From UHGV virus genome UHGV-0120697: a stretch of 28,017 nucleotides of DNA, one strand, 5' to 3'. Made by a program: the position numbers and the translations under genes. This document shows, in pieces, positions 5,001-24,594 of this stretch. The stretch's first letter is position 1, and every line of letters starts with the position of its first letter. Under the pieces are notes generated by a model. That model did not search any database. It was not told the origin of the DNA and worked only from the letters and a program-made list of their open reading frames with translations. The stretch is from a virus.

Positions 5001-5204
5001 ATGAACAACAAGACATGGTTTCGTGCATATGCATGGGCGCTGGTATGCGTCCTCGTCTCTCTCATTCTGTATGTAGGGGTACTCCCCCGAATGATTTCAT
5101 CAGACAGCTCCTTCCTGGTATTGTTGGGCATTTTCATTGCCATGCTGTACCCGGCAGGCGTTGTTCGCCTTTTCAGTAAGTACATCAAGGAAATTAAACA
5201 ATGA
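5001..5204 (+). CDS. Small membrane protein, two predicted TM helices (67 aa)
   Basis: Internal ATG at 5001 with an AAGGG RBS after the previous stop; two hydrophobic segments; ATGA-coupled to the downstream SPFH gene. Confidence 0.5.
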   Translation: MNNKTWFRAYAWALVCVLVSLILYVGVLPRMISSDSSFLVLLGIFIAMLYPAGVVRLFSKYIKEIKQ

Positions 5205-6031
5205 AGAAATTCAGACTCTTTCAGATTCTCCCGCTTTTTGCCGCCATCCTGCTGGTTGGCTGCGATCGCGTTGAGCCAGGTAATATGGGCATCAAAGTCA
5301 ACAAGCTGGGCGACGACAAAGGCGTTGGCGAAGTGGTTGGCGTTGGTCGCTACTGGACTGGCTGGAATACCGAGGTTTACATCTTCCCGACCTTCAAACA
5401 AATGAAGACCTACGATGAGCCGTTCAGCTTTCAGATGAGTGACGGCACAACCATCGGCTATCACATCGGCGTGGCCTACAAAGTTGATCCATCCAAAGTT
5501 ACCACGGTGTTTCAGACCTACCGCAAAGGCGTGGACGACATTACCGACACTGACCTGCGCCAGAAGATCGCCGATGCACTCAACCGACTGGCCAGCAAAA
5601 TGACCACCGATAAGTTTATCGACGGTGGTAAGTCTGAACTGCTGGATTCAGCACTTAAAGATATTCAGGAAGAGATGACCCCCATCGGTATTCAGGTCAT
5701 GAGCCTCTCTTATGTCGGTAAACCGGAATATCCGCCAACCGTTATCGACAGCATTAACGCCAAAGTCACGGCAAACCAGAAAACCCTGCAACGTGAACAG
5801 GAAGTCAAGCAACGCGAAGCTGAAGCCAACATGCTGCGCGCAGAAGCTGCCGGACAAGCCGATGCCATTCGCACAAAAGCCCAGGCTGAAGCCGACGCCA
5901 TTCGTTTACGCGGCGAAGCTCTGCGCCAGAATCCCGGCGTTATGGAGCTGGAAGCGATTAACAAATGGAACGGCACGCTACCGCAATACATGACCAGTAA
6001 CACCGCTGTTCCGTTTGTTCCGGTGAAGTAA
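5201..6031 (+). CDS. SPFH/band-7 (HflK/C-, prohibitin-like) domain lipoprotein
   Basis: Signal peptide with lipobox LLVGC; SPFH-like core followed by an Ala/Glu/Gln/Arg-rich coiled coil (EAEANMLRAEAAGQADAIRTKAQAEADAIRLRGEA) and a WNGTLP tail typical of band-7 proteins. Confidence 0.7.
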   Translation: MKKFRLFQILPLFAAILLVGCDRVEPGNMGIKVNKLGDDKGVGEVVGVGRYWTGWNTEVYIFPTFKQMKTYDEPFSFQMSDGTTIGYHIGVAYKVDPSKVTTVFQTYRKGVDDITDTDLRQKIADALNRLASKMTTDKFIDGGKSELLDSALKDIQEEMTPIGIQVMSLSYVGKPEYPPTVIDSINAKVTANQKTLQREQEVKQREAEANMLRAEAAGQADAIRTKAQAEADAIRLRGEALRQNPGVMELEAINKWNGTLPQYMTSNTAVPFVPVK

Positions 6032-6081: not shown

Positions 6082-6198
6082 AGTATGCCGTTCTCACAAA
6101 AAAACCGCTTGCCATGCCGCAATCAGTCAGGTTACATTTCCGCTGCACCTCATAAAACGGGTGCCGGGATTGGAACCCCGCTGACTATGCACGCGCAC

Positions 6199-6220
6199 AA
6201 CCGCGCCAGCGGTTTTTTTG
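6199..6220 (+). terminator. Intrinsic terminator-like hairpin AACCGC-GCCA-GCGGTT followed by T7
   Basis: Stem-loop plus U-tract read directly, inside a roughly 340-bp region with no convincing ORF. Confidence 0.4.
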
Positions 6221-6274
6221 TGCGTACCGTATCGCCACGTCTTTTTCGCGTCAGAATTATGGTGGGGCGTATGG

Positions 6275-6371
6275 GGCCGACTTCGGTCGGGCCGGATTCG
6301 TGCGTAGCCGGTAGTTCCAACCCTGTACGTCTCACCACCCCGAGCTTGGAACCTCTGGATGGTGAGTTTTT
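6275..6371 (+). ncRNA. Candidate structured RNA: UUCG-tetraloop hairpin (6275-6293), helix GTTCCAA/TTGGAAC (6314-6320 with 6346-6352) crossing helix CTCACCA/TGGTGAG (6331-6337 with 6360-6366), then T5
   Basis: Complementarities read directly. ORFs on both strands here translate to low-complexity, non-protein-like sequence. Function unknown. Confidence 0.3.
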
Positions 6372-6398
6372 AAAACTTACTACGTACGAGGCCACCCC

Positions 6399-6629
6399 AT
6401 GGCAAACCGCAAACAACAGCGCGCATACGCTGCGCGTCGTCACATCCAGACTGAAATCAACCGCAGACTTTTCCGCGCATTCCGCGTCGCGCATATCATG
6501 CACATCAATATGCTGCATGAGCGCAGCCACGCACTATCAAACATCTATTCCGCCGCTGTTTTCAGCTATCTGGCGGATGATCTGCGCGAGCTTCAACAGC
6601 TCATCCAGCAGCAAAACAAACTCCATTAA
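6399..6629 (+). CDS. Hypothetical small basic protein
   Basis: ORF with a GAGG RBS directly after the structured non-coding region; weak support. Confidence 0.35.
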   Translation: MANRKQQRAYAARRHIQTEINRRLFRAFRVAHIMHINMLHERSHALSNIYSAAVFSYLADDLRELQQLIQQQNKLH

Positions 6630-6701
6630 TTCCTGTTCCGGGCCTTTCCTGCACCTTGCGGCGGGAGGCCTTCGCACATCTGTAACAAGAGGATTGCCGC
6701 A

Positions 6702-7067
6702 ATGATTCTCGCCAACGACTTTCTTGAATACCTGCTCAACACAGAACGTGATCTTGCCGCTCGCGTGCGTGATCGTTATGACATGTACCTGAAATCCCTG
6801 CCTGTACCGCAGCTCGCTGACGGAAAGATTGTTATTGATGGTCGCTACATGATTGACAGCCACGAGGGAAATTACAGGCTTTACCGCATTGAAGGTGGCA
6901 CCCCGTCCGTTATTGGCATTTACCAGCGCCCATCCTCTGCAATCGTCGATGTGATTGCCGACAGCATCCGCATCACACATCGCCATGCCGACACAGAAGA
7001 CACCGTGCTGGAAATTCAGCGGCTGGCTACAGTCTGCCGCGACACCCTGAATGGCATGACGAAGTAA
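6702..7067 (+). CDS. Hypothetical protein immediately upstream of the replication gene
   Basis: ORF in the operon orientation; ends 7 nt before the A start. Confidence 0.5.
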   Translation: MILANDFLEYLLNTERDLAARVRDRYDMYLKSLPVPQLADGKIVIDGRYMIDSHEGNYRLYRIEGGTPSVIGIYQRPSSAIVDVIADSIRITHRHADTEDTVLEIQRLATVCRDTLNGMTK

Positions 7068-7073
7068 ATCACT

Positions 7074-9896
7074 ATGACGGCAGAGTACATCAGGGACTGG
7101 CAACAACCGCGCCACGCAGTAGGACGTGAAGGAACGGAGATCCCCGCACCTGAATCCGCACTTTCCTCCTGGCTGGATGCCTACCGGGCAGAGAACGAAC
7201 GCCGCCAGGAAATGGCTGATGCGGCGTTCTCCGCCACACCGCTGGGCAACCTGATTAATAAAAGCCTGGACGCACAGGAAAAACAGGACAAAACCATCAC
7301 ACTGGCAGGAGACGCCAGAAAACGGGCACGCGGCGCGGTGGATGAAGCCATGGCCTCGCTGCGCCTGCTGCCGTCCTATCTGCGCGATCCGCTTATTCGC
7401 CACCTCTCCTTCCTGCGCAAAAAACAGGAAGCCGATCGCCGGAAAGGCAAAAAGAGCTGGCAGGCGGAACGCTATGCACGCGGAACCCTGCGCAAAATAT
7501 TCGAACGTCTGGATCGCACTGACAGACGCTGGCTGACACCGGGTTATCGCTCCCTTGCCGGACGCGAACGCCTGGACGATTTGCTTTACCTGCCGCAGCT
7601 CAACAAACACCAGATACAGACGCTGGCCACCATGACGGCGGCGATGTTCAGCAGCACCTTCGAAAAACTCTGCGATGGCTTTGGCGCGACTGATGGCGAA
7701 CTGACCATGGATGTAACGCTGAAGGCGTATCAGATGCTGGCCCGCATGGCGTTACACCTGCACGCCATGCCTCCACATTATGACGCACTGACAACAGACA
7801 AAGACCGGAGGAACGAACCGGACACGGAGCTGCTGCCGGGCGCAATCCTCCGCCTGACCTGTGCGGAATGGTGGAAACGCAAACTGTGGCTGTTACGTTG
7901 CGAGTGGAGAGAAGAACAACTCCGCGCCGCCTGTCTGGTTTCCAGAAAAACATCGCCCTATCTGAGCCAGGACGCGTTAAGCGAGTTTCGCGCACAGCGC
8001 GAGAAAACACGCGATTTCCTGAAAAGTTTCATGCTGGAAAATGAAGACGGGTTCACGATTGATCTCGAGACGGTGTATTACGCGGGAGTAAGTAACCCGG
8101 TTCACCGTAAGGCAGAAATGATGGCCACCATGAAGGGACTGGAACTTCTGGCCGAAGCCCGTAGCGACAGAGCGGTGTTTCTGACCGTCACCTGCCCGTC
8201 AAAATACCACGCAACAACGGAGAACGGTCATCCGAACCCCAAATGGAACGGGGCCACCATGCGCGACTCCAGCGATTACCTGGTTAACACGTTTTTTGCG
8301 GCAGTCCGCAAAAAACTGAACCGCGACGGCCTGCGCTGGTATGGCATCCGCACGGTGGAGCCTCACCATGACGGCACCGTGCACTGGCATATGATGGTCT
8401 TTGCTCATCCGGAAGAAATCGACAGCATCGTGGCCATCACCCGCGATATTGCCATTCAGGAAGATCGTCACGAACTGGGCGATGATATTACTCCGCGCTT
8501 TAAGGCGGAGTATGTCGACGGCTCAAAAGGCACACCAACCAGCTATATCGCGACCTACATCGGAAAAAACCTGGACAGCCGCGCCGTAGATGGCATCGAC
8601 CCGAAAACGGGCAAGCCACGCGTTGACCACGAAACCGGAAAATCAATGGCCGAGAGCGTGGAGCGCGCCATTGGCTGGGCGCGTCTTCATCGGGTCCGCC
8701 AGTTCCAGTTCTTTGGCATCCCCTCCCGTCAGGTATGGCGTGAACTCCGCCGCCTTGCCAGCCAGATGGCACGCAACCCGGAAGGCCCGCAACGGCTGAA
8801 GGATGATGCAATGGATGCGGTACTCGCTGCCGCTGATGCCGGGTGTTTTGCCTCCTACATTGAAAAACAGGGTGGCGTGCTTGTTCCACGCAAGGACTAC
8901 CTGATTCGCACCGCCTACGACCTCGCAGATGAGCTGAACGATTACGGCGAACAGAGCGTACAGATTTACGGGATCTGGTCACCACTCATCGGGGAATCCT
9001 CCCGTGTGTGCACGCATCCGGATAACTGGAAGTTGGTAAGACGTAAACCAGAACCAGAAGACAACGCCCGCGAAAATGGTTTTGACCTTCAGGGCGGCCA
9101 TGCCGCCCCTTGGACTCGTGGCAATAACTGTCCCCGTGTACAGGAAACGGACAACAACGGGACAGAACAGCCGGAAGAACGGCCAGCACCGTGGCCGCAG
9201 CTTCCTGACGGCGTTGACGTGAACGAATGGATGCGCTCACTGAAACGGCACGAACGCCGGGCGCTGATGCGTTCGCTTCGTGACAAACAGGCAAAAAACA
9301 GCAGTGATGAAATGCAGAGCTGGACACAGAGCCGCAAACAGCAGCGGCCTTTGCCTGATAACCACGAATTACTCGCTAAAGAATGGCGGGAATCTGCCGA
9401 ATCTCTCGGCCTGCATATCGGTGAACAGCAGATGCAGCACCTGTTACGGGGCGGCAGTCTGTACGTTGACGGCAGCATCATTGCACCGCAGGGATTTGAA
9501 ATTGTACGCAAACCGGATACCCGACCGGACAGCCGGATCACGCAGCTCTGGCAGCGCCTGAGCCGTAACCACGGCGTAAGCAGTACGGAGATCCGCCATA
9601 ACCCGGTCGCCAGCTATCTGGAACAGCTGAGGGCATCAGACCCCGAAGCCGCCGCACGCCTGGCATCCACACTTCAGCAAGACCAGAACACCATGAAAAC
9701 ACCCGTTACCGTGCTTTCTGACATGCTGCGCGCCATCCGCGACGCAGAGCACGCACAGAGAATCAGTGAAACCACTGAACGCGCCCGCCGCAAAGCAGAC
9801 CTGCTGCGGGGTGGCCTGACCAGTGGAAACAAAAAACAGACAGAAACGGGATTCACAAATCCCGTAAATGAGCAAAAAACGCGCCGCGATATATGA
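7074..9896 (+). CDS. A: Rolling-circle replication initiator, gpA family (HUH endonuclease)
   Basis: HUH motif (TVHWHMMVFAH) and paired active-site tyrosines (TSYIATYIGKN); position after the early operon as in P2. 940 aa, longer than P2 gpA (about 760 aa), with a C-terminal extension. Confidence 0.9.
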   Translation: MTAEYIRDWQQPRHAVGREGTEIPAPESALSSWLDAYRAENERRQEMADAAFSATPLGNLINKSLDAQEKQDKTITLAGDARKRARGAVDEAMASLRLLPSYLRDPLIRHLSFLRKKQEADRRKGKKSWQAERYARGTLRKIFERLDRTDRRWLTPGYRSLAGRERLDDLLYLPQLNKHQIQTLATMTAAMFSSTFEKLCDGFGATDGELTMDVTLKAYQMLARMALHLHAMPPHYDALTTDKDRRNEPDTELLPGAILRLTCAEWWKRKLWLLRCEWREEQLRAACLVSRKTSPYLSQDALSEFRAQREKTRDFLKSFMLENEDGFTIDLETVYYAGVSNPVHRKAEMMATMKGLELLAEARSDRAVFLTVTCPSKYHATTENGHPNPKWNGATMRDSSDYLVNTFFAAVRKKLNRDGLRWYGIRTVEPHHDGTVHWHMMVFAHPEEIDSIVAITRDIAIQEDRHELGDDITPRFKAEYVDGSKGTPTSYIATYIGKNLDSRAVDGIDPKTGKPRVDHETGKSMAESVERAIGWARLHRVRQFQFFGIPSRQVWRELRRLASQMARNPEGPQRLKDDAMDAVLAAADAGCFASYIEKQGGVLVPRKDYLIRTAYDLADELNDYGEQSVQIYGIWSPLIGESSRVCTHPDNWKLVRRKPEPEDNARENGFDLQGGHAAPWTRGNNCPRVQETDNNGTEQPEERPAPWPQLPDGVDVNEWMRSLKRHERRALMRSLRDKQAKNSSDEMQSWTQSRKQQRPLPDNHELLAKEWRESAESLGLHIGEQQMQHLLRGGSLYVDGSIIAPQGFEIVRKPDTRPDSRITQLWQRLSRNHGVSSTEIRHNPVASYLEQLRASDPEAAARLASTLQQDQNTMKTPVTVLSDMLRAIRDAEHAQRISETTERARRKADLLRGGLTSGNKKQTETGFTNPVNEQKTRRDI
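9846..9865. promoter_or_regulatory. 20-bp palindrome ACGGGATT-CACA-AATCCCGT (copy 1, inside the 3' end of A)
   Basis: Perfect 8-bp inverted arms; an identical-arm copy lies 73 bp downstream. Confidence 0.5.
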
Positions 9897-9918
9897 AGCG
9901 CGCATAAAACAGGCAAAA

Positions 9919-9938
9919 ACGGGATTTCAGAATCCCGT
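9919..9938. promoter_or_regulatory. 20-bp palindrome ACGGGATT-TCAG-AATCCCGT (copy 2, 35 bp upstream of the parM-like start)
   Basis: Same arms as copy 1; both copies preceded by AAAACAG and followed by AAA(T/C)GA; positioned as an operator or centromere-like site. Confidence 0.5.
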
Positions 9939-9972
9939 AAACGATTAATTAATCAACATAAGGAAAAGCGAC

Positions 9973-10932
9973 ATGAAAATTTGTATCGATGACGGCTCCA
10001 CCAACATCAAGCTGGCATGGACTGAGAACGGCGAACGCCGCAACGCCATCAGCCCGAACAGCTTCAAGTCGGAATGGTCTGCGCCGTTCGGTGGCACGCA
10101 GCCCGCGAACTACATGCTTGATGGCGTGCGCTATGGTTTTGATCCGGTCAGCGATCGCTTTGTCCAGACGACTGACACGCAATACCAGTACAGCGATGTG
10201 AATGTCATTGCCATTCATCACGCGCTGGTCAAATCAGGCATCACGCCACAGGAGGTGGATGTGGTTGTCACCCTGCCACTGAGCGAGTATTTCGACACAA
10301 ACGCACAGCCGGACATAGCCAACATCAACCGCAAAAAAGCGAACGTTATGCGCCCGGTGGAGTACCAGAACGGCGAAGCATTCACTATCCGTAACGTACG
10401 GGTTATGCCTGAATCCATTCCGGCTGGCTTTAAGGCACTGGCTGACATGAGTCCGTTTGAATCCCTGCTGATTGTGGATTTAGGCGGAACCACGCTGGAT
10501 GTGGCAAAGGTTCAGGGACAACTGGCAGGTATCAGCCAGGTGTTTTGCGATCCACACGTAGGCGTTTCCCTGATGGCCGATGCCGTACTGTCGGTGATGG
10601 CCACTAACGGTATGCGTACCAGTCACCACATCGCCAATACCATTATCGAACATCGCCATGATGAAGCCTGGCTGCGCCAGCACATCCACAATGACGCGCA
10701 TTACGCCAGCCTGATGGCGGTTATTCGTGAAAAGGAAGAAACACTGAAACAACGCGTGATCCGCGCGCTGGCGGGTTTTTCGGGTTACGGGCGGGTGATG
10801 GTTGTCGGTGGCGGGGCAGAGATTGTGGCACCCGCTATCCGCGAAGCCTGCGGAGTTAATGCGACTTTCATCGCGGACGGGGTGCCACAGTTTGCTCTGG
10901 TTAATGGGCTGTACGCAATGGGCAAGGAGTAA
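9973..10932 (+). CDS. parM: Actin-like segregation ATPase, ParM/StbA family
   Basis: Actin-fold motifs: phosphate-1 (IDDGSTNIKLAW), phosphate-2 (VDLGGTTLD), adenosine (VVGGGAEIVAP). N-terminus closely resembles plasmid R1 ParM as recalled from memory (not searched). Confidence 0.7.
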   Translation: MKICIDDGSTNIKLAWTENGERRNAISPNSFKSEWSAPFGGTQPANYMLDGVRYGFDPVSDRFVQTTDTQYQYSDVNVIAIHHALVKSGITPQEVDVVVTLPLSEYFDTNAQPDIANINRKKANVMRPVEYQNGEAFTIRNVRVMPESIPAGFKALADMSPFESLLIVDLGGTTLDVAKVQGQLAGISQVFCDPHVGVSLMADAVLSVMATNGMRTSHHIANTIIEHRHDEAWLRQHIHNDAHYASLMAVIREKEETLKQRVIRALAGFSGYGRVMVVGGGAEIVAPAIREACGVNATFIADGVPQFALVNGLYAMGKE

Positions 10933-11311: not shown

Positions 11312-11644
11312 ATGCAACACATTGACAGAGAAAAAGCGCAGCGACTGATTGAGCGGATGGAAGCGCTGGCGAAAGAAGAAAATGTCAACATCCAAAAAAT
11401 AGCTGAATGTGGCCAGATAGTTCTTCGTCGTGAAAAAGACCTCAAACAACTGATGTCTGGCGAAACCAGCAAAACATGGACTTCAGGCGAGAAGACGGTT
11501 TATTGCAGCTTCTGCAATAAATCCCAGTACGAAGTCACAAAGGTGATTGCCGGACCGTCTGTTTACATCTGCAATGAGTGCGTGGATTTGTGCAATGAAA
11601 TTATCAGGAAAGAAGTGACAGACAAAAAGGAAAAAAACGCATGA
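11312..11644 (+). CDS. Small protein with a ClpX-type C4 zinc-binding domain (host ClpX N-domain mimic)
   Basis: C-terminal [38 protein letters not shown] has the C-x2-C-x18-C-x2-C spacing and is near-identical to the E. coli ClpX N-terminal zinc-binding domain as recalled from memory. No AAA+ module follows. Confidence 0.6.
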
Positions 11645-11955
11645 ACAGAAAACAGAAACAAGAGTTGAAATACTTCTTACGTAAAGAAATTGCCAGGCTT
11701 GAAGATGCAGAGTCACAATCATCAGAAATTCCGTTCGGAATGGATATCAACGACGCCCGTATGCTCCAGGCATACCGCATAGCTCAGGCTGCACTACAGG
11801 CAAAACCGTCAGATGGACTGGTTAGAGCAGTACATTTCTATGAACAGGTAAAGCGTGAGAATCCGCCAGTCGAAACCGGAGCATGGAAAGACGCTGTTGA
11901 CTGGGTGCTCAAAGAGGCTTGCCAGTCTGTAAACATTGGCATCAAAGGAGAGTGA
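11641..11955 (+). CDS. Hypothetical protein (operon gene 2)
   Basis: ATGA-coupled to the upstream gene; ends ...IGIKGE with the stop inside a 17-bp repeat. Confidence 0.5.
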
Positions 11956-11957
11956 GA

Positions 11958-12449
11958 ATGCAAATTTCACCGGTTACTCTTCGTGTTGCGAAGGCGTTTA
12001 TATCCAGACATCACCGACACAATAAACCCCCGGTGGGGCATAAATTCAGCATTGGTCTGAGAAATGATGCCGGAGAATTGATAGGTGTGGCGACAGCCGG
12101 TAGACCTGTTGCACGACATTTGGACGATGGATTAACGCTTGAAGTAAATCGCACATGTACCACAGGAGAACGCAACGCTAACAGCGCGCTTTATGGTGCT
12201 GTCTGGCGGGCAGCAAAGGCTATGGGTTATCAACGTTGTATTACGTACACCCAGGCAGATGAATCAGGAGCATCTCTCCGCGCAGCTGGTTTTGTTCGTG
12301 TGAAAGAGCTTCCTCCAAGAAAAAGCTGGGCGGAATCAAGCGTCGCCCTGCGGAGTAAACGCGATCCGGTCGGAAACGGTGGTGTTCCTCGTGTGCTCTG
12401 GGAAATCAGGAGAATGAGTACCACTGGCATTCGCATCAAAGGAGAGTGA
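11958..12449 (+). CDS. Hypothetical protein (operon gene 3), basic/His-rich N-terminus; possible acyltransferase-like fold
   Basis: ATG 2 nt after the upstream stop; ends ...GIRIKGE with the stop inside the second copy of the 17-bp repeat. Fold assignment is a weak impression only. Confidence 0.45.
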   Translation: MQISPVTLRVAKAFISRHHRHNKPPVGHKFSIGLRNDAGELIGVATAGRPVARHLDDGLTLEVNRTCTTGERNANSALYGAVWRAAKAMGYQRCITYTQADESGASLRAAGFVRVKELPPRKSWAESSVALRSKRDPVGNGGVPRVLWEIRRMSTTGIRIKGE

Positions 12450-21064: not shown

Positions 21065-21456
21065 AGCTCTGGCCCACGCTTGGCGTCGCTTTCCTTCTGA
21101 TTACATCCATGCGTCTGTCGTGGTCGCTGGGCCGGGAGAACGCCAGAAACGAAGCGCAGGCCAGCACCCTGAAAAGTACCGTCGACACACTGAATATCAT
21201 CAGCGCCGGGGTACAGGATATGCAGCAGGTGCTGGCTCAGCTCCGCGCGGAAAATCAGCAACGCAATCAGGACGGAGAGGTAAGACGTGAACAGCTACGC
21301 AACGATATTGCAAAAGATGAATGCGCCCACGCTTTGCCTGACGCTCGTTTTACTGACAGGTTGCGCAGGCACGCAGAACGCGCCAGGGCCAGCGCCGTCA
21401 GTCCGGCTTATACCGCAGACGCTGACCATGCCGGTAACGCCTCCCCCCTTCCCTGA
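21061..21456 (+). CDS. i-spanin (Rz/LysB-like)
   Basis: ATGA-coupled to the endolysin; N-terminal TM anchor followed by a charged coiled-coil region. Confidence 0.55.
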   Translation: MKLWPTLGVAFLLITSMRLSWSLGRENARNEAQASTLKSTVDTLNIISAGVQDMQQVLAQLRAENQQRNQDGEVRREQLRNDIAKDECAHALPDARFTDRLRRHAERARASAVSPAYTADADHAGNASPLP

Positions 21457-21598
21457 CCCACCCACATGGGGAAACCTCGGAATATGGGGCGACCGCCTTC
21501 TGGATGCACTGGAAACCTGTAACGCGGATAAACGGGCCATTGCTGAACTGGATAAGAGAATAGCCGAACTGACACACCAGACGGGAGTAACACAATGA
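21317..21598 (+). CDS. o-spanin (Rz1/LysC-like outer-membrane lipoprotein) in the +1 frame, overlapping the i-spanin
   Basis: Signal peptide with lipobox LLTGC and a Pro-rich mature region; starts inside the i-spanin gene and runs past it. Confidence 0.55.
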   Translation: MNAPTLCLTLVLLTGCAGTQNAPGPAPSVRLIPQTLTMPVTPPPFPDPPTWGNLGIWGDRLLDALETCNADKRAIAELDKRIAELTHQTGVTQ

Positions 21599-23475
21599 CC
21601 AGTAAGAACTTTGCACTGATTACAGCCATGACACAGGCTGAACTGACTCAAAAGGTGAATGAACATCTTGCGAAAGGGTGGCATCTTCAGGGGGAGACGC
21701 GGGTTGCCTACGAACCCGGCACCCCGTGGTATCTAATGCAGGCAATGGTGGCCGATGGCACTACAGACATCTCACCTGATTCCCCCCAGCACGGCAGCGT
21801 GCCGGAGTGGTATTACGTGGTGGTACTTGCTGGTCAATCCAATGCCATGTCATATGGTGATGGAATGCCGCTGCCGGATTCTTACGATGCGCCCCACCCA
21901 CGCATTAAGCAACTGGCCCGTCGCAACACAGTGACTCCCGGTGGTAAAGCATGCGCATTTAACGACATCATTCCGGCAGACCACTGCCTGCATGATGTTC
22001 AGGATATGAGCGCACTGAATCATCCGAAGGCAGACCTGAGCAAAGGGCAGTACGGCTGTGTCGGCCAGGGCTTACATATTGCCAAAAAACTGCTCCCGTA
22101 TATCCCGAATAACGCGGGGATCCTGCTGGTACCATGCTGCCGTGGTGGTTCGGCATTCACTCAGGGCGCGGAGGGAACATTCAGTACGACCACGGGGGCC
22201 AGCCAGGATTCGGCGCGCTGGGGTGTGGGTAAACCGTTATATCAGGACCTGATTGCGCGCACTAAAGCTGCATTACAGAAGAACCCGAAAAATGTGTTGC
22301 TGGCGGTGTGCTGGATGCAGGGCGAATTTGACATGAGCGCTGCCACCTACGCACAGCAACCGGACCTGTTCACGGCCATGCTGAAGCAGTTCCGTACTGA
22401 CCTTTCCGGATTTAACGCGCAGTGCCATGGCGGCAGTGCTGCAGTTGTACCGTGGATTTGTGGCGACACGACGTATTACTGGAAAAACACATACGGCACA
22501 CAGTATGACTCCGTCTACGGCGCGTACAAAAACAGGGAGAGCGACAACGTTTTCTTTGTGCCGTTCATGACCGACGGTAACGGCAACAACACGCCCACCA
22601 ACTTACCGGCAGAAGACCCGGATATTGCTGATGCAGGTTATTACGGCGCGCAATCCCGTAGTAATGGTAATTGGGTATCGTCAAATCGTCCGACACATTT
22701 CAGTTCATGGGCGCGCAGGAGCATTATTTCGGATCGCCTGGCAACCGCTATTCTGAACGCAGTTGGTCGAACCAGCGCCTTCATCAGCGGTACCGCACCG
22801 GAGATTAAACCCTCGCCCGGCGGCGACACTCCATCGGGGCCGTCTGATGGTGACACATCCGTTCGTACAGTCTCCCTGCTGCCGACAGCCGGAGAGGCTG
22901 CTGCGCAGGGCTGGACCATCACCGGCGGCAGTGTTGCGCTGGAAGATGGTGTGTTTAAGGTTACCAAGCAGAGCAATAAAACCTGGTCCCTGATGCATCC
23001 GGTGGATGACGCAGTCTCCCTGCTGACACGGGGTGGCAGACTGAGCTGTAAGTTTCGACTGTCAGGCGCACTGACCAACAACCAGTTCGGTCTGGGAATT
23101 TATCTGTATACCGATGTAGCGTTACCTGACGTCGTGGCGATGACCGGGACTGGTAACCCGTTCCTGATGTCGTTCTTCACCCAGACCACAGACGGCAAAC
23201 TGAATCTGATGCATCACAAGAAAGCCGGAAACACAAAGTTGGGCGAGTTCGGGAATTACAGTAACGACTGGCAGACGCTGGAGCTGGTGTTCACCGCCGG
23301 CAGTGCCACGGTTACTCCGAAACTGAATGGAGTGGCTGGCCCGGCATTCCAGGTCATAAAAGACAGTCTGACACTGGGGCTGAATGCGCTGACGTTAACT
23401 GATATCACTAAAAATGCCGCGTACGGCGTCGATATCGGCAGCCTGGTGCTGGAAATCAATAATCCCGCAGCATAA
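21595..23475 (+). CDS. SGNH-hydrolase esterase with N-terminal DUF1737-like region and C-terminal lectin-like domain (NanS-p-like sialate O-acetylesterase candidate); moron
   Basis: GQSN block (VVVLAGQSNAMSYGDG) typical of SGNH/sialate O-acetylesterases; ATGA-coupled to the o-spanin stop; there is no counterpart between lysis and R in P2. Confidence 0.65.
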   Translation: MTSKNFALITAMTQAELTQKVNEHLAKGWHLQGETRVAYEPGTPWYLMQAMVADGTTDISPDSPQHGSVPEWYYVVVLAGQSNAMSYGDGMPLPDSYDAPHPRIKQLARRNTVTPGGKACAFNDIIPADHCLHDVQDMSALNHPKADLSKGQYGCVGQGLHIAKKLLPYIPNNAGILLVPCCRGGSAFTQGAEGTFSTTTGASQDSARWGVGKPLYQDLIARTKAALQKNPKNVLLAVCWMQGEFDMSAATYAQQPDLFTAMLKQFRTDLSGFNAQCHGGSAAVVPWICGDTTYYWKNTYGTQYDSVYGAYKNRESDNVFFVPFMTDGNGNNTPTNLPAEDPDIADAGYYGAQSRSNGNWVSSNRPTHFSSWARRSIISDRLATAILNAVGRTSAFISGTAPEIKPSPGGDTPSGPSDGDTSVRTVSLLPTAGEAAAQGWTITGGSVALEDGVFKVTKQSNKTWSLMHPVDDAVSLLTRGGRLSCKFRLSGALTNNQFGLGIYLYTDVALPDVVAMTGTGNPFLMSFFTQTTDGKLNLMHHKKAGNTKLGEFGNYSNDWQTLELVFTAGSATVTPKLNGVAGPAFQVIKDSLTLGLNALTLTDITKNAAYGVDIGSLVLEINNPAA

Positions 23476-23498
23476 GGAAGAGCAGGAGAGCAAAACAG

Positions 23499-23966
23499 AT
23501 GCTTAAGACAAACAGTCTGCGAGAGTCCATGCTTCATGGGTGTCGGTGGTGCCAGGCTAATCCCGAGAAATTCACCATTTTCGTGGAGAGCGGCAACATT
23601 GAAACGACCGGAGAAGCGCCCTCGTTTGTTTACCGCTATCAGATGGTGATGTTTGTCATGGATTACGCCGGAGAGCTGGACGACCTCACGCTGCCGCTGC
23701 TGGCGTGGTTATCCGAAAATCAGCCACAGTTGTTGCTCAATCCGGAGCGTAATCAGGACATCAAATTTTCTGCCGTTATCAATGACGATGACAGCGCCGA
23801 TCTCCTGTTTACGCTCCCCCTGCGGGAACGCGTTCGCATCACGCGCAACAGTCAGGGCACACCGCAGGCAGAACACCTGCCGGAGCCAAAACCCCGTCTG
23901 CCTTCTTCCGAAGGCGACTGGTCGCATGTATTCCAGGATGTGACGTGGGGTGAAAGCGATGGATAA
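23499..23966 (+). CDS. R: Tail completion protein, P2 gpR-like
   Basis: 155 aa; N-terminus MLKTNSLRESM... and LPLLAWLSENQP segment match my recollection of gpR; position before S. Confidence 0.8.
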   Translation: MLKTNSLRESMLHGCRWCQANPEKFTIFVESGNIETTGEAPSFVYRYQMVMFVMDYAGELDDLTLPLLAWLSENQPQLLLNPERNQDIKFSAVINDDDSADLLFTLPLRERVRITRNSQGTPQAEHLPEPKPRLPSSEGDWSHVFQDVTWGESDG

Positions 23967-24594
23967 GGCATTCACCAGCGTGGATGAAACCTTTGAGGCT
24001 ATCCGCGACAGCCTGAATCAGCAGGCCATCAATAACATCGCCAGAAAGCTGGCACAGGATTTACGTCGCGCCCAGCAGGCGCGTATCCGGTCACAAAAAG
24101 CGCCGGACGGGACCGAATGGACACCACGCAGACGCCGCGTAACCCGGATACAGGAGCGCATTCGCTTTATCTGGAATAACGAAGCACGCACGCTGAAAAA
24201 CTGGCATCACGACACGGGGAAATACGGGCGAACCATTACCGGGTGGGATGAGGATAAAAACAATATCCGCACGTTTTACCGGGATGACATCGACCGTTTT
24301 CTGGAAATACGCACCCGGCGCATCAACCAGGACAGCACAAAGCGCGTCCCCATGTTCGTAAAACTGCGCACCGCCCGCTACCTGAAAGCCCGTGCAGATG
24401 CCTCCGGTGTGACGGTGGGTTACAGCGGCGTGGCCGCACGTATTGCACGCGTTCATCAGTTCGGTGAGCGCGATCAGGTTGCGCCGGGCATTTTCACCGA
24501 TTACCCGGTACGTGAGCTGTTGGGTATCAGCCAGGCAGATGAGCGCCTGATTTATAACACGGTGCTGGGCCGGATTGCGGAGGCTGTACGGTGA
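23959..24594 (+). CDS. S: Tail completion/virion morphogenesis protein, P2 gpS-like
   Basis: Position between R and V; ATG at 23959 overlaps the R end; longer than P2 gpS, so assignment rests mainly on synteny. Confidence 0.65.
   Translation: MDKAFTSVDETFEAIRDSLNQQAINNIARKLAQDLRRAQQARIRSQKAPDGTEWTPRRRRVTRIQERIRFIWNNEARTLKNWHHDTGKYGRTITGWDEDKNNIRTFYRDDIDRFLEIRTRRINQDSTKRVPMFVKLRTARYLKARADASGVTVGYSGVAARIARVHQFGERDQVAPGIFTDYPVRELLGISQADERLIYNTVLGRIAEAVR

Follow-up and report, generated by a model that had tools for sequence, protein, structure and literature searches.

A gene for a sialate O-acetylesterase of the NanS-p type lies between the spanin genes and tail-completion gene R of the viral genome UHGV-0120697, the whole 28,017-nucleotide stretch of which is referred to here as the window. 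Comparison of its 626-aa product with homologous proteins shows, as judged from domain-by-domain identities, that the esterase and lectin-like domains have been exchanged across phage types whereas the N-terminal DUF1737 domain stays with the phage lineage. The explanation that best accommodates the data as a whole, and which is given about an even chance of being correct, is that the protein is a late-made, lysis-released sialate O-acetylesterase that is probably docked on the P2-type capsid. The least certain step is the docking itself, in which the P2-type DUF1737 domain would attach the esterase to hexons of the capsid protein gpN, and its probability is put a little below even. The enzyme is ordinary and already in the databases, the exact protein being present on 501 public contigs under the name 'DUF1737/DUF6645 domain-containing protein [Escherichia coli]'. 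As far as the literature is searchable, neither the lineage-matched N-terminal module nor the conserved slot of the gene in P2-like phages that have diverged has been described: in that literature 'nanS-p' and 'P2-like' co-occur solely in unrelated passages of a review, and none of the four papers that mention DUF1737 concerns P2-like phages.

Mosaic structure of the esterase

The esterase and lectin-like domains of the window protein are, respectively, 88-89% and 85% identical to the copies carried by a Shiga toxin (Stx) 1a phage and by phage 434, whereas the DUF1737 domain is only 31-35% identical to those same copies and 22% identical to that of 933W. Identity between DUF1737 domains amounts to 57-100% within the P2-like phages and 82-100% within the lambdoid phages compared, as against 31-41% between the two groups. 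At the DNA level, similarity to Stx1 phages starts only at about position 21801, past the DUF1737 segment, and when the first 69 aa were used in a tblastn search the sole matches were three records of P2-like phages, with none from a lambdoid phage. For most pairs the esterase core is 63-76% identical regardless of phage type, and the lectin domain is reshuffled (28-56%), with that of the window nearest to Stx1a and 434 and that of the diverged P2-like locus L033 nearest to Stx2a. In the lineage to which the window itself belongs, the N-domain remains 100% identical where the esterase is 88-100% and the lectin domain 90-100% identical.

Variation within the DUF1737 domain is greatest in the loop equivalent to the capsid anchor described for phage phi24B, and three types of loop were distinguished, namely ISTAGYGAEFIQ in 933W and phi24B, AITPYTLMQ in Stx1a, EH2246 and 434, and A(Y/S)EPG(T/V)PWYLMQ in the P2-like phages. 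All of the P2-like copies have a four-residue insertion (x-E-P-G) at this point, the window reading A-Y-E-P-G-T-P-W-Y at aa 38-46. In a model calculated with AlphaFold2 (AF2) the domain has a beta-alpha-beta-beta topology (strand 5-11, helix 14-26, strand 30-38, loop, strand 46-53), with a predicted local distance difference test score (pLDDT) of approximately 56-78, and the P2-lineage insertion sits in the beta2-beta3 loop.

Scans of IMG/VR placed the same gene in the slot between LysC and gpR in P2-like phages of E. coli with structural proteins only 45-70% identical to those of the window (gpM 54%, gpL 70%, gpR 56-58%, gpS 45-48% and gpJ 65%). The juxtaposition of the LysC stop and the esterase start behind GGAG is kept in these diverged loci, and at least two P2-like lineages that are deeply diverged conserve the slot. 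Searching for homologues of the 68-aa N-domain brought up nothing but pieces of the same protein, while an exhaustive HMMER comparison of the domain with 1.84 billion representatives gave 11 matches, mostly short standalone or frameshifted DUF1737 pieces. A single-sequence scan of genome contigs with the N-domain yielded one weak, uninformative Hyphomicrobiaceae match, a sequence search of the PDB for DUF1737 returned coiled-coil noise and no DUF1737 chain, and megablast of locus L033 against the phage collection gave no match. No virion proteome or structure from a P2-like phage that bears on particle association came to light.

Two related arrangements were encountered in the course of these comparisons. 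In L033 (approximately 7972-8372) and a second locus, L040 (approximately 6973-7343), an ORF (open reading frame) of about 54 hydrophobic aa (M..IMLYFSTAV.LLYL.SGGYKAV.NFWNKK...) is found between the esterase and gpR, a position at which the window has only the 23-nt gap between the esterase stop codon and gpR. Secondly, a Mu-like prophage of E. coli (positions 8001-10049 of both L050 and L051) encodes a 682-aa SASA and DUF6645 esterase, P0185, without DUF1737, which is replaced at the N-terminus by an unrelated beta-rich module of about 85 aa and a Gly/Ser linker. The context of this prophage includes Mu Gp45/46/48, a Gin-type resolvase, a Com zinc ribbon and a DNA methylase, and small DUF1378 and DUF826 ORFs lie 3' of the esterase gene, as they do downstream of nanS-p in Stx phages.

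Proposed capsid docking and alternative explanations

The significance of the mosaic (MECHANISTICALLY) is that the homologous DUF1737 domain is a capsid-binding module in phi24B. The NanS-p homologue of that phage, gp84, gives one of the most intense bands of the virion, and is full-length (approximately 70 kDa) in fresh preparations but processed on storage; its DUF1737 domain (Ala2-Ser57), built from a helix, three strands and an anchor loop that bears Tyr42, forms hexamers that occupy the pores at the centres of capsid hexons, the Tyr42 'tooth' being inserted between helices of the major capsid protein (bioRxiv 10.64898/2026.04.10.717836). The window protein belongs to the same family and has the same architecture, and its predicted N-domain fold matches the phi24B anchor (one helix and three antiparallel strands) with moderate confidence. 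The window protein also has Pro/Ser-rich linkers, with an ISP motif near a domain boundary that falls in linker 1 (DISPDSP at aa 57-63) and may be compared with SISSP, the putative autoproteolysis motif of phi24B gp84.

Co-variation of DUF1737 with the capsid was examined in a small sample that is not phylogenetically controlled. The phages Stx1a_11KH263 and Stx2a_EH2246, in which a 645-aa head gene (annotated as prohead protease) is 100% identical, have DUF1737 domains that are 96% identical and lectin domains that are 35% identical. Conversely, Stx2a_EH2246 and 933W have esterase and lectin domains that are 95-100% identical, and here the major capsid proteins are unrelated and the DUF1737 loops differ. 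Among the P2-like phages a gpN identity of 62% parallels DUF1737 identities of 57-64%. A conserved anchor that carries exchangeable distal domains is the pattern of virion-anchor modules in tail fibres and tailspikes, which the domain pattern of the esterase resembles.

On the preferred explanation, the esterase would be made only in lytic growth, alongside the capsid, lysis and tail proteins. Late expression is suggested because the gene is syntenic with the O operon of P2 (the P2 annotation treats the homologous region as a single O operon), would be translationally coupled to LysC and lacks signals of its own. As no hydrophobic, signal-like N-terminus was seen in the protein, which argues against secretion, the enzyme would leave the cell only at lysis. 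The DUF1737 domain would dock it on gpN hexamers, as the homologous domain does in phi24B, and fresh virions would then display esterase and lectin. The SGNH core, with Ser82 as nucleophile and His368 as base, would remove O-acetyl groups from sialic acids such as 5-N-acetyl-9-O-acetylneuraminic acid (Neu5,9Ac2) on mucins, while the C-terminal lectin-like beta-sandwich may help to target glycans. Cleavage of the Pro/Ser-rich linker might later shed the enzyme, as has been proposed for phi24B.

A number of observations weigh against this explanation, and particularly against docking. Phage 434 has a lambda gpE/gpD head yet an EH2246-type DUF1737 domain (82-86%), indicating that the type of the domain does not always follow the type of the capsid. 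The phi24B loop ISTAGYGAEFIQ is replaced in the window by AYEPGTPWYLMQ, with the longer YEPGTPWY, such that the anchor Tyr42 is not conserved; the aromatic residues W45 and Y46 are present in the window loop but are not alignable to Tyr42. The phi24B result itself comes from a preprint on a T=9 podovirus in which binding is seen only at flat face-centre hexons (bioRxiv 10.64898/2026.04.10.717836), whereas the P2 gpN capsid of the window, presumed to be T=7, would be without a flat face-centre hexon. Sorting of the N-terminus by phage type could, moreover, reflect linkage alone, because imported esterase alleles would cross over in the conserved core and leave the resident 5' end in place. Phage P88 and the 689 genomes with an empty junction (see below) do without the gene, which is thus dispensable for virion assembly, and the AF2 model is mediocre (mean pLDDT 63). 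Finally, an Ogr-type TGT-N12-ACA element is absent from the expected P_O late promoter region, and since the promoter scan was also at chance level the argument for late expression is one of synteny only.

The main rival is the classical model of NanS-p as a soluble 'public good', according to which DUF1737 has no virion role and free enzyme from lysing lysogens feeds the survivors by conversion of Neu5,9Ac2 to Neu5Ac. This is a substantial possibility, with a probability that is nonetheless clearly below even. The growth phenotypes published for nanS-p alleles in EDL933 and O104:H4 (PMC8065619, PMC10462455) are in its favour, as are the dispensability of the gene (689 empty against 376 occupied junctions), the break in capsid tracking presented by phage 434, the lack of conservation of the phi24B anchor Tyr42, and the esterase-lectin cassette without DUF1737 in the Mu-like prophage. 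What a freely soluble enzyme leaves unexplained is why the N-domain should be the most conserved part of the protein within the lineage (100%, against 88-100% for the esterase), why DUF1737 should diverge in step with gpN, and why the same DUF1737 domain should recur in lambdoid phages with identical capsid genes and swapped lectin domains; the homologous phi24B protein is, in addition, structural. An esterase that modifies receptors or capsule is considered unlikely. In this case a virion-borne or lysis-released enzyme would deacetylate surface glycans, such as the O-acetylated polysialic K1 capsule or the O-antigen, and thereby expose a receptor or prevent superinfection, an idea that has been raised for NanS-p (PMC8065619) and with which the Foldseek resemblance of the lectin-like domain to sialic-acid-binding lectin domains is consistent. 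However, a capsid-mounted or free enzyme would be poorly placed in comparison with tail-mounted depolymerases, the precedent for DUF1737 is the capsid rather than the tail, the characterised substrates of NanS-p are free and mucin-bound sialic acids (PMC8065619), and sialylated surfaces are not known for most of the hosts that carry the prophage.

It is least probable of all, to the point of being barely tenable, that the gene is a decaying passenger, left over from recombination and now without function. Truncated or partial homologues are indeed numerous in the databases, and P88 is without the gene. Yet the ORF is intact over 626 aa, 367 genomes share its N-terminal DNA at 99% identity or more, none of the catalytic blocks varies, and the same slot is filled in P2-like phages with structural proteins that are just 45-70% identical. 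On the grounds of the intact ORF, the invariant blocks and the conserved slot, a pseudogene was rejected.

Returning to the capsid-docked esterase, a wider proposal can be framed, although it is tentative and rather doubtful in its entirety. The DUF1737 domain would be an anchor matched to the capsid lineage, and the protein the first capsid decoration protein of a P2-like phage (Peduoviridae), present at up to hundreds of units per head; virions would bind and remodel O-acetylated gut mucus, and the cassette would be swappable among P2-like, lambdoid and Mu-like phages, the anchor remaining with its capsid. If DUF1737 is indeed a capsid anchor, then the heads of temperate myoviruses from both commensal and pathogenic E. 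coli would bear mucus-modifying enzymes, which would bear on models of phage adherence to mucus and on the spread of mucus-modifying enzymes. P88, which is without the gene, and its gene-bearing relatives constitute a natural test pair. Examples of P88-like phages with the esterase are vB_EcoM-569R5 and 705R2.

Domain architecture, catalytic centre and substrate

On its sequence the protein is shown to be an intact NanS-type Ser/His esterase with a lectin-like C-terminal domain. The preliminary description of this DNA had identified a NanS-p-like esterase with a DUF1737 segment, an SGNH core (GQSN, aa 80-83) and a lectin-like C-terminus, and Pfam, the alignments with PDB entries 3pt5 and 6yp6, and Foldseek bear out that assignment. 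In the hidden Markov model search that it proposed, all three Pfam domains scored above their gathering cut-offs: DUF1737 (PF08410) at aa 4-53 (E 3.3e-7, 30.5 bits against a cut-off of 24), SASA at aa 75-271 (E 6.2e-13, 49.3 bits against 24.8) and DUF6645 at aa 477-587 (E 2.2e-19). PHROG 143 covers the protein from end to end (1080 bits), NanS (3pt5) aligns to aa 69-388 (E 1.4e-122), and the C-terminal domain of phi24B NanS-p, in its crystal structure (6yp6), aligns to aa 431-623 (E 4e-30). Scans of the esterase against NCBIfam and PADLOC gave no matches. Linker 2, between the core and the C-terminal domain, also shows KPSPGGDTPSGPS.

The full-length AF2 model, calculated from 27 homologues, represents the esterase core poorly, has a confidently predicted beta-sandwich at the C-terminus, and was used only for the topology of the N-domain and the fold of the C-domain. 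Foldseek returned 3pt5 and 6yp6 as the first matches to the model, the C-domain superimposing on 6yp6 with a template modelling (TM) score of 0.85 and a root-mean-square deviation of 2.2 A; the next matches after 6yp6 were legume and ERGIC-53 lectins and the lectin domain with which V. cholerae sialidase binds sialic acid. The residues that correspond to the lectin-site aromatics Y510, Y515, Y540 and F611 of phi24B vb_24B_21 are F498, Y503, F528 and L594 in the window protein.

Conservation of catalytic residues was assessed in the same 27 homologues, which extend down to 55% identity (Table 1). The chromosomal NanS (YjhS, 3pt5) has the blocks 17-GQSNA-21, 120-RGGSAF-125 and 178-MQGEFD-183, with R-x-S-H-F-S ending at 303, and is without a catalytic Asp, a main-chain oxygen contacting the His instead (PMC10792757). 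GQSNA, RGGSAF, MQGEFD and R-x-(S/T)-H-F-S are shared between NanS and the window core, and the RPTH variant of the last block has been noted before in Stx2 phage 86. NanS has just one domain, however, whereas the window protein is prophage-borne and has the additional DUF1737 and lectin-like domains. The preliminary description had made its assignment conditional on a Ser in the GQSN block and a distal Asp/His; of these, Ser82 and His368 are present, while Asp does not form part of a NanS-type site. Absence of a distal Asp does not count against esterase function, because the NanS family itself has none, and its motifs give the protein a catalytic centre of the NanS type, a Ser/His pair that lacks Asp. 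The same DUF1737-SASA-DUF6645 architecture, and the same NanS-type SGNH blocks, are found in the lambdoid NanS-p proteins (933W L0105/Z1466, phi24B vb_24B_21/gp84, Stx1-phage and 434), and the window protein has every feature of the NanS-p family that can be tested on a sequence.

De-O-acetylation of Neu5,9Ac2 and related mucin sialic acids is the activity that would be expected, given the lambdoid NanS-p proteins that are 85-89% identical (an allele type annotated as yjhS), the near-identical O104:H4 allele and the structure of NanS. Esterase activity was reported for every NanS-p allele tested from EDL933 and for all five studied from O104:H4 (PMC8065619, PMC10462455). Exactly five places in O104:H4 genomes match the esterase core, one of them being the P2-like allele, and we infer from these five genomic copies that the P2-like allele is among the five reported active, such that the enzyme has probably already been assayed. 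The inference depends on the chromosomal nanS mostly escaping the query, which it appears to do because 48% of genomes match, against approximately 93% of isolates with nanS.

Genomic context, exchange and prevalence

The window has about 96% DNA identity to P88 (Xuanwuvirus P88, NC_026014) over 72% of positions 1-24000, and on this identity and its gene order it is a P88-like (Peduoviridae, Xuanwuvirus-type) E. coli prophage. The order int-C-cox-A-parM-Q-P-O-N-M-L-X-holin-endolysin-Rz/LysC-R-S-V is common to both; P88 differs in having no esterase, Rz/LysC leading directly into gpR. In blastn comparison with P88, homology stops at 21542, within the 3' end of lysC, and is picked up again at 23541, 43 nt inside gpR, the window holding a 2.0-kb module where P88 has 93 nt. 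That the module carries its own LysC tail and gpR head points to homologous exchange among P2-like genomes rather than site-specific insertion.

The genes upstream of the esterase, in order, are those for terminase small subunit M, head completion L, tail X, holin, M15 endolysin, Rz and LysC, among which Pfam recognised Phage_holin_3_1 and a Peptidase_M15_4 endolysin; gpR, gpS (Phage_tail_S), V, W and J follow downstream, and by Pfam and PHROG the set is that of a P2-type late operon. Rz gave a weak Pfam match to DUF2570 (E 0.0034, below the cut-off), and was identified by PHROG 214, 'Rz-like spanin' (E 1.7e-39). The location between the spanins and gpR, where P2 was said to have nothing, and the start of the gene on the o-spanin stop were both noted previously, and both hold: in P2 (NC_001895) lysC overlaps R with nothing between, the spanin-gpR junction of P88 is likewise without an inserted gene, and the ORFs and Pfam matches in the window place the esterase as described, with its ATG at 21595-21597 overlapping the LysC TGA at 21596-21598 (ATGA). 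The ORF is intact, with an ATG start. Lambdoid nanS-p genes, although also in the late region beside the lysis cassette, lie directly before the holin gene, between stx/Q and holin, whereas the window gene comes after the spanins and before tail gene R; the described NanS-p proteins are lambdoid, and the window is a P2-like myovirus (Peduoviridae).

When started at the in-frame ATG at 21317, the LysC ORF gives MNAPTLCLTLVLLTGC, with a canonical LLTGC lipobox, whereas the homologous LysC in RefSeq is annotated as a 62-aa protein without a lipobox. For this reason the o-spanin start is probably mis-annotated in public records.

Table 1 Features of the esterase locus and other features of the window
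Feature	Position in window	Strand	Evidence or remarks
nanS-p-type sialate O-acetylesterase gene	21595..23475	+	ORF, Pfam, PHROG 143, PDB 3pt5/6yp6 matches; exact protein in public databases
DUF1737 domain, aa 1-53, P2-lineage subtype, putative capsid anchor	21595..21753	+	Pfam, identities, AF2
Linker 1, aa 54-68, DGTTDISPDSPQHGS, low-complexity, Pro/Ser-rich	21754..21798	+	Sequence; pLDDT <50
NanS-type SGNH/SASA esterase core, aa 69-390	21799..22764	+	3pt5 alignment; Foldseek top match 3pt5
SGNH Block I, GQSNA, aa 80-84, nucleophile Ser82	21832..21846	+	Equivalent to NanS 17-GQSNA-21, Ser19; invariant in 27 homologues
SGNH Block II, RGGSAF, aa 183-188, oxyanion-hole Gly	22141..22158	+	R183 and G184 invariant, G185 nearly so (27 homologues)
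SGNH Block III, MQGEFD, aa 241-246	22315..22332	+	G243 and E244 invariant (27 homologues)
SGNH Block V, RPTHFS, aa 365-370, catalytic His368, no Asp	22687..22704	+	R365 and H368 invariant (27 homologues)
Linker 2, aa 391-430, Pro/Ser/Gly-rich (…APEIKPSPGGDTPSGPSDGDTS…)	22765..22884	+	Sequence; pLDDT <50
DUF6645 lectin-like beta-sandwich, C-terminal, aa 431-626	22885..23472	+	Pfam, 6yp6, Foldseek; pLDDT 77-90
Shine-Dalgarno GGGAG, 7 nt 5' of esterase ATG	21583..21587	+	Sequence
LysC / Rz1-like o-spanin ORF	21287..21598	+	Pfam LysC E 1.6e-13, translation; probable start ATG 21317
gpR tail-completion gene	23499..23966	+	Pfam P2_Phage_GpR E 1.4e-38
Variable module of approximately 2.0 kb (LysC C-terminal tail, esterase, first 14 gpR codons)	21543..23540	+	blastn vs P88
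SPFH/Band-7 protein	5201-6031		E 1.3e-30
Ash-family protein	6085-6705		
ParM and Plasmid_stab_B partition pair, as in P88	9973-11248		
ClpX-type C4 zinc-finger protein	11312-11644		E 6.8e-18
Weak Mom-like match	11919-12449		Below Pfam cut-off

The junction of lysis genes, esterase and gpR was present at a coverage of at least 80% in 373 of 5426 complete E. coli genomes, and the P2-type 5' end of the gene in 376 of the 5426 (approximately 7%), 367 of these at 99% identity or more. An empty junction of the P88 type was found in 689 complete E. coli genomes, so that about one third of such prophages carry the module. NanS-p is almost always discussed as cargo of lambdoid Shiga-toxin phages that feeds enterohaemorrhagic E. 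coli on mucus sialic acids, and the P2-like prophage copies extend it beyond the lambdoid phages. Some 350 phage genomes have nanS-p. Carriers of the P2-like allele include the 2011 O104:H4 outbreak strains and many human isolates other than Shiga toxin-producing E. coli. The O104:H4 prophage lies between btuC and ihfA, and its esterase has 98.6% DNA identity to that of the window, with 99-100% protein identity per domain.

The term moron, applied to the gene in the preliminary description, is apt in so far as the gene is present in some relatives and absent from others, but not in the sense of a transcription unit of its own or a distinct composition. A scan for promoters and terminators gave sites at or below the expectation from shuffled sequence, none of which brackets the esterase, and the GC content of the gene (0.545-0.56) is close to that of the flanks (0.57-0.58); for these reasons the view of it as a strict moron that carries transcription signals of its own was rejected. 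The gene is rather a polymorphic accessory late module exchanged by homologous recombination.

Three further observations were made on relatives of the locus. The IMG/VR locus L007 (7885-12204) has the same esterase, with 100% identity in the N-domain and core, and the same upstream lysis genes, but no match to gpR, S, V, W or J within 4.3 kb downstream, which could reflect rearrangement, insertion or misassembly. A 752-aa protein (P0084) from one E. coli assembly, the longest contig of which is 6.6 Mb, consists of the P2-type esterase fused in frame, near its C-terminus, to a tail-collar (PF07484) fibre segment, and is probably the product of a rearrangement or an assembly artefact. In the O104:H4 prophage (L001, 29112-29684, beyond the equivalent of the 3' end of the window), the tail-fibre assembly gene is immediately followed, on the other strand, by a gene annotated as 'serine O-acetyltransferase', and this prophage thus holds an acetyltransferase-like gene and an acetylesterase together.

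Other genes in the window

Comparison of six early or accessory proteins of the window with PADLOC defence models, Ash and the ParM/Plasmid_stab_B pair not being among the six, gave no match. Downstream of gpR, the gpS stop codon overlaps the gpV start (24591-24594). The orf30/P_V promoter interval that divides the O and V operons of P2 is absent from the window, in which the late genes from O through to the baseplate appear to be contiguous.

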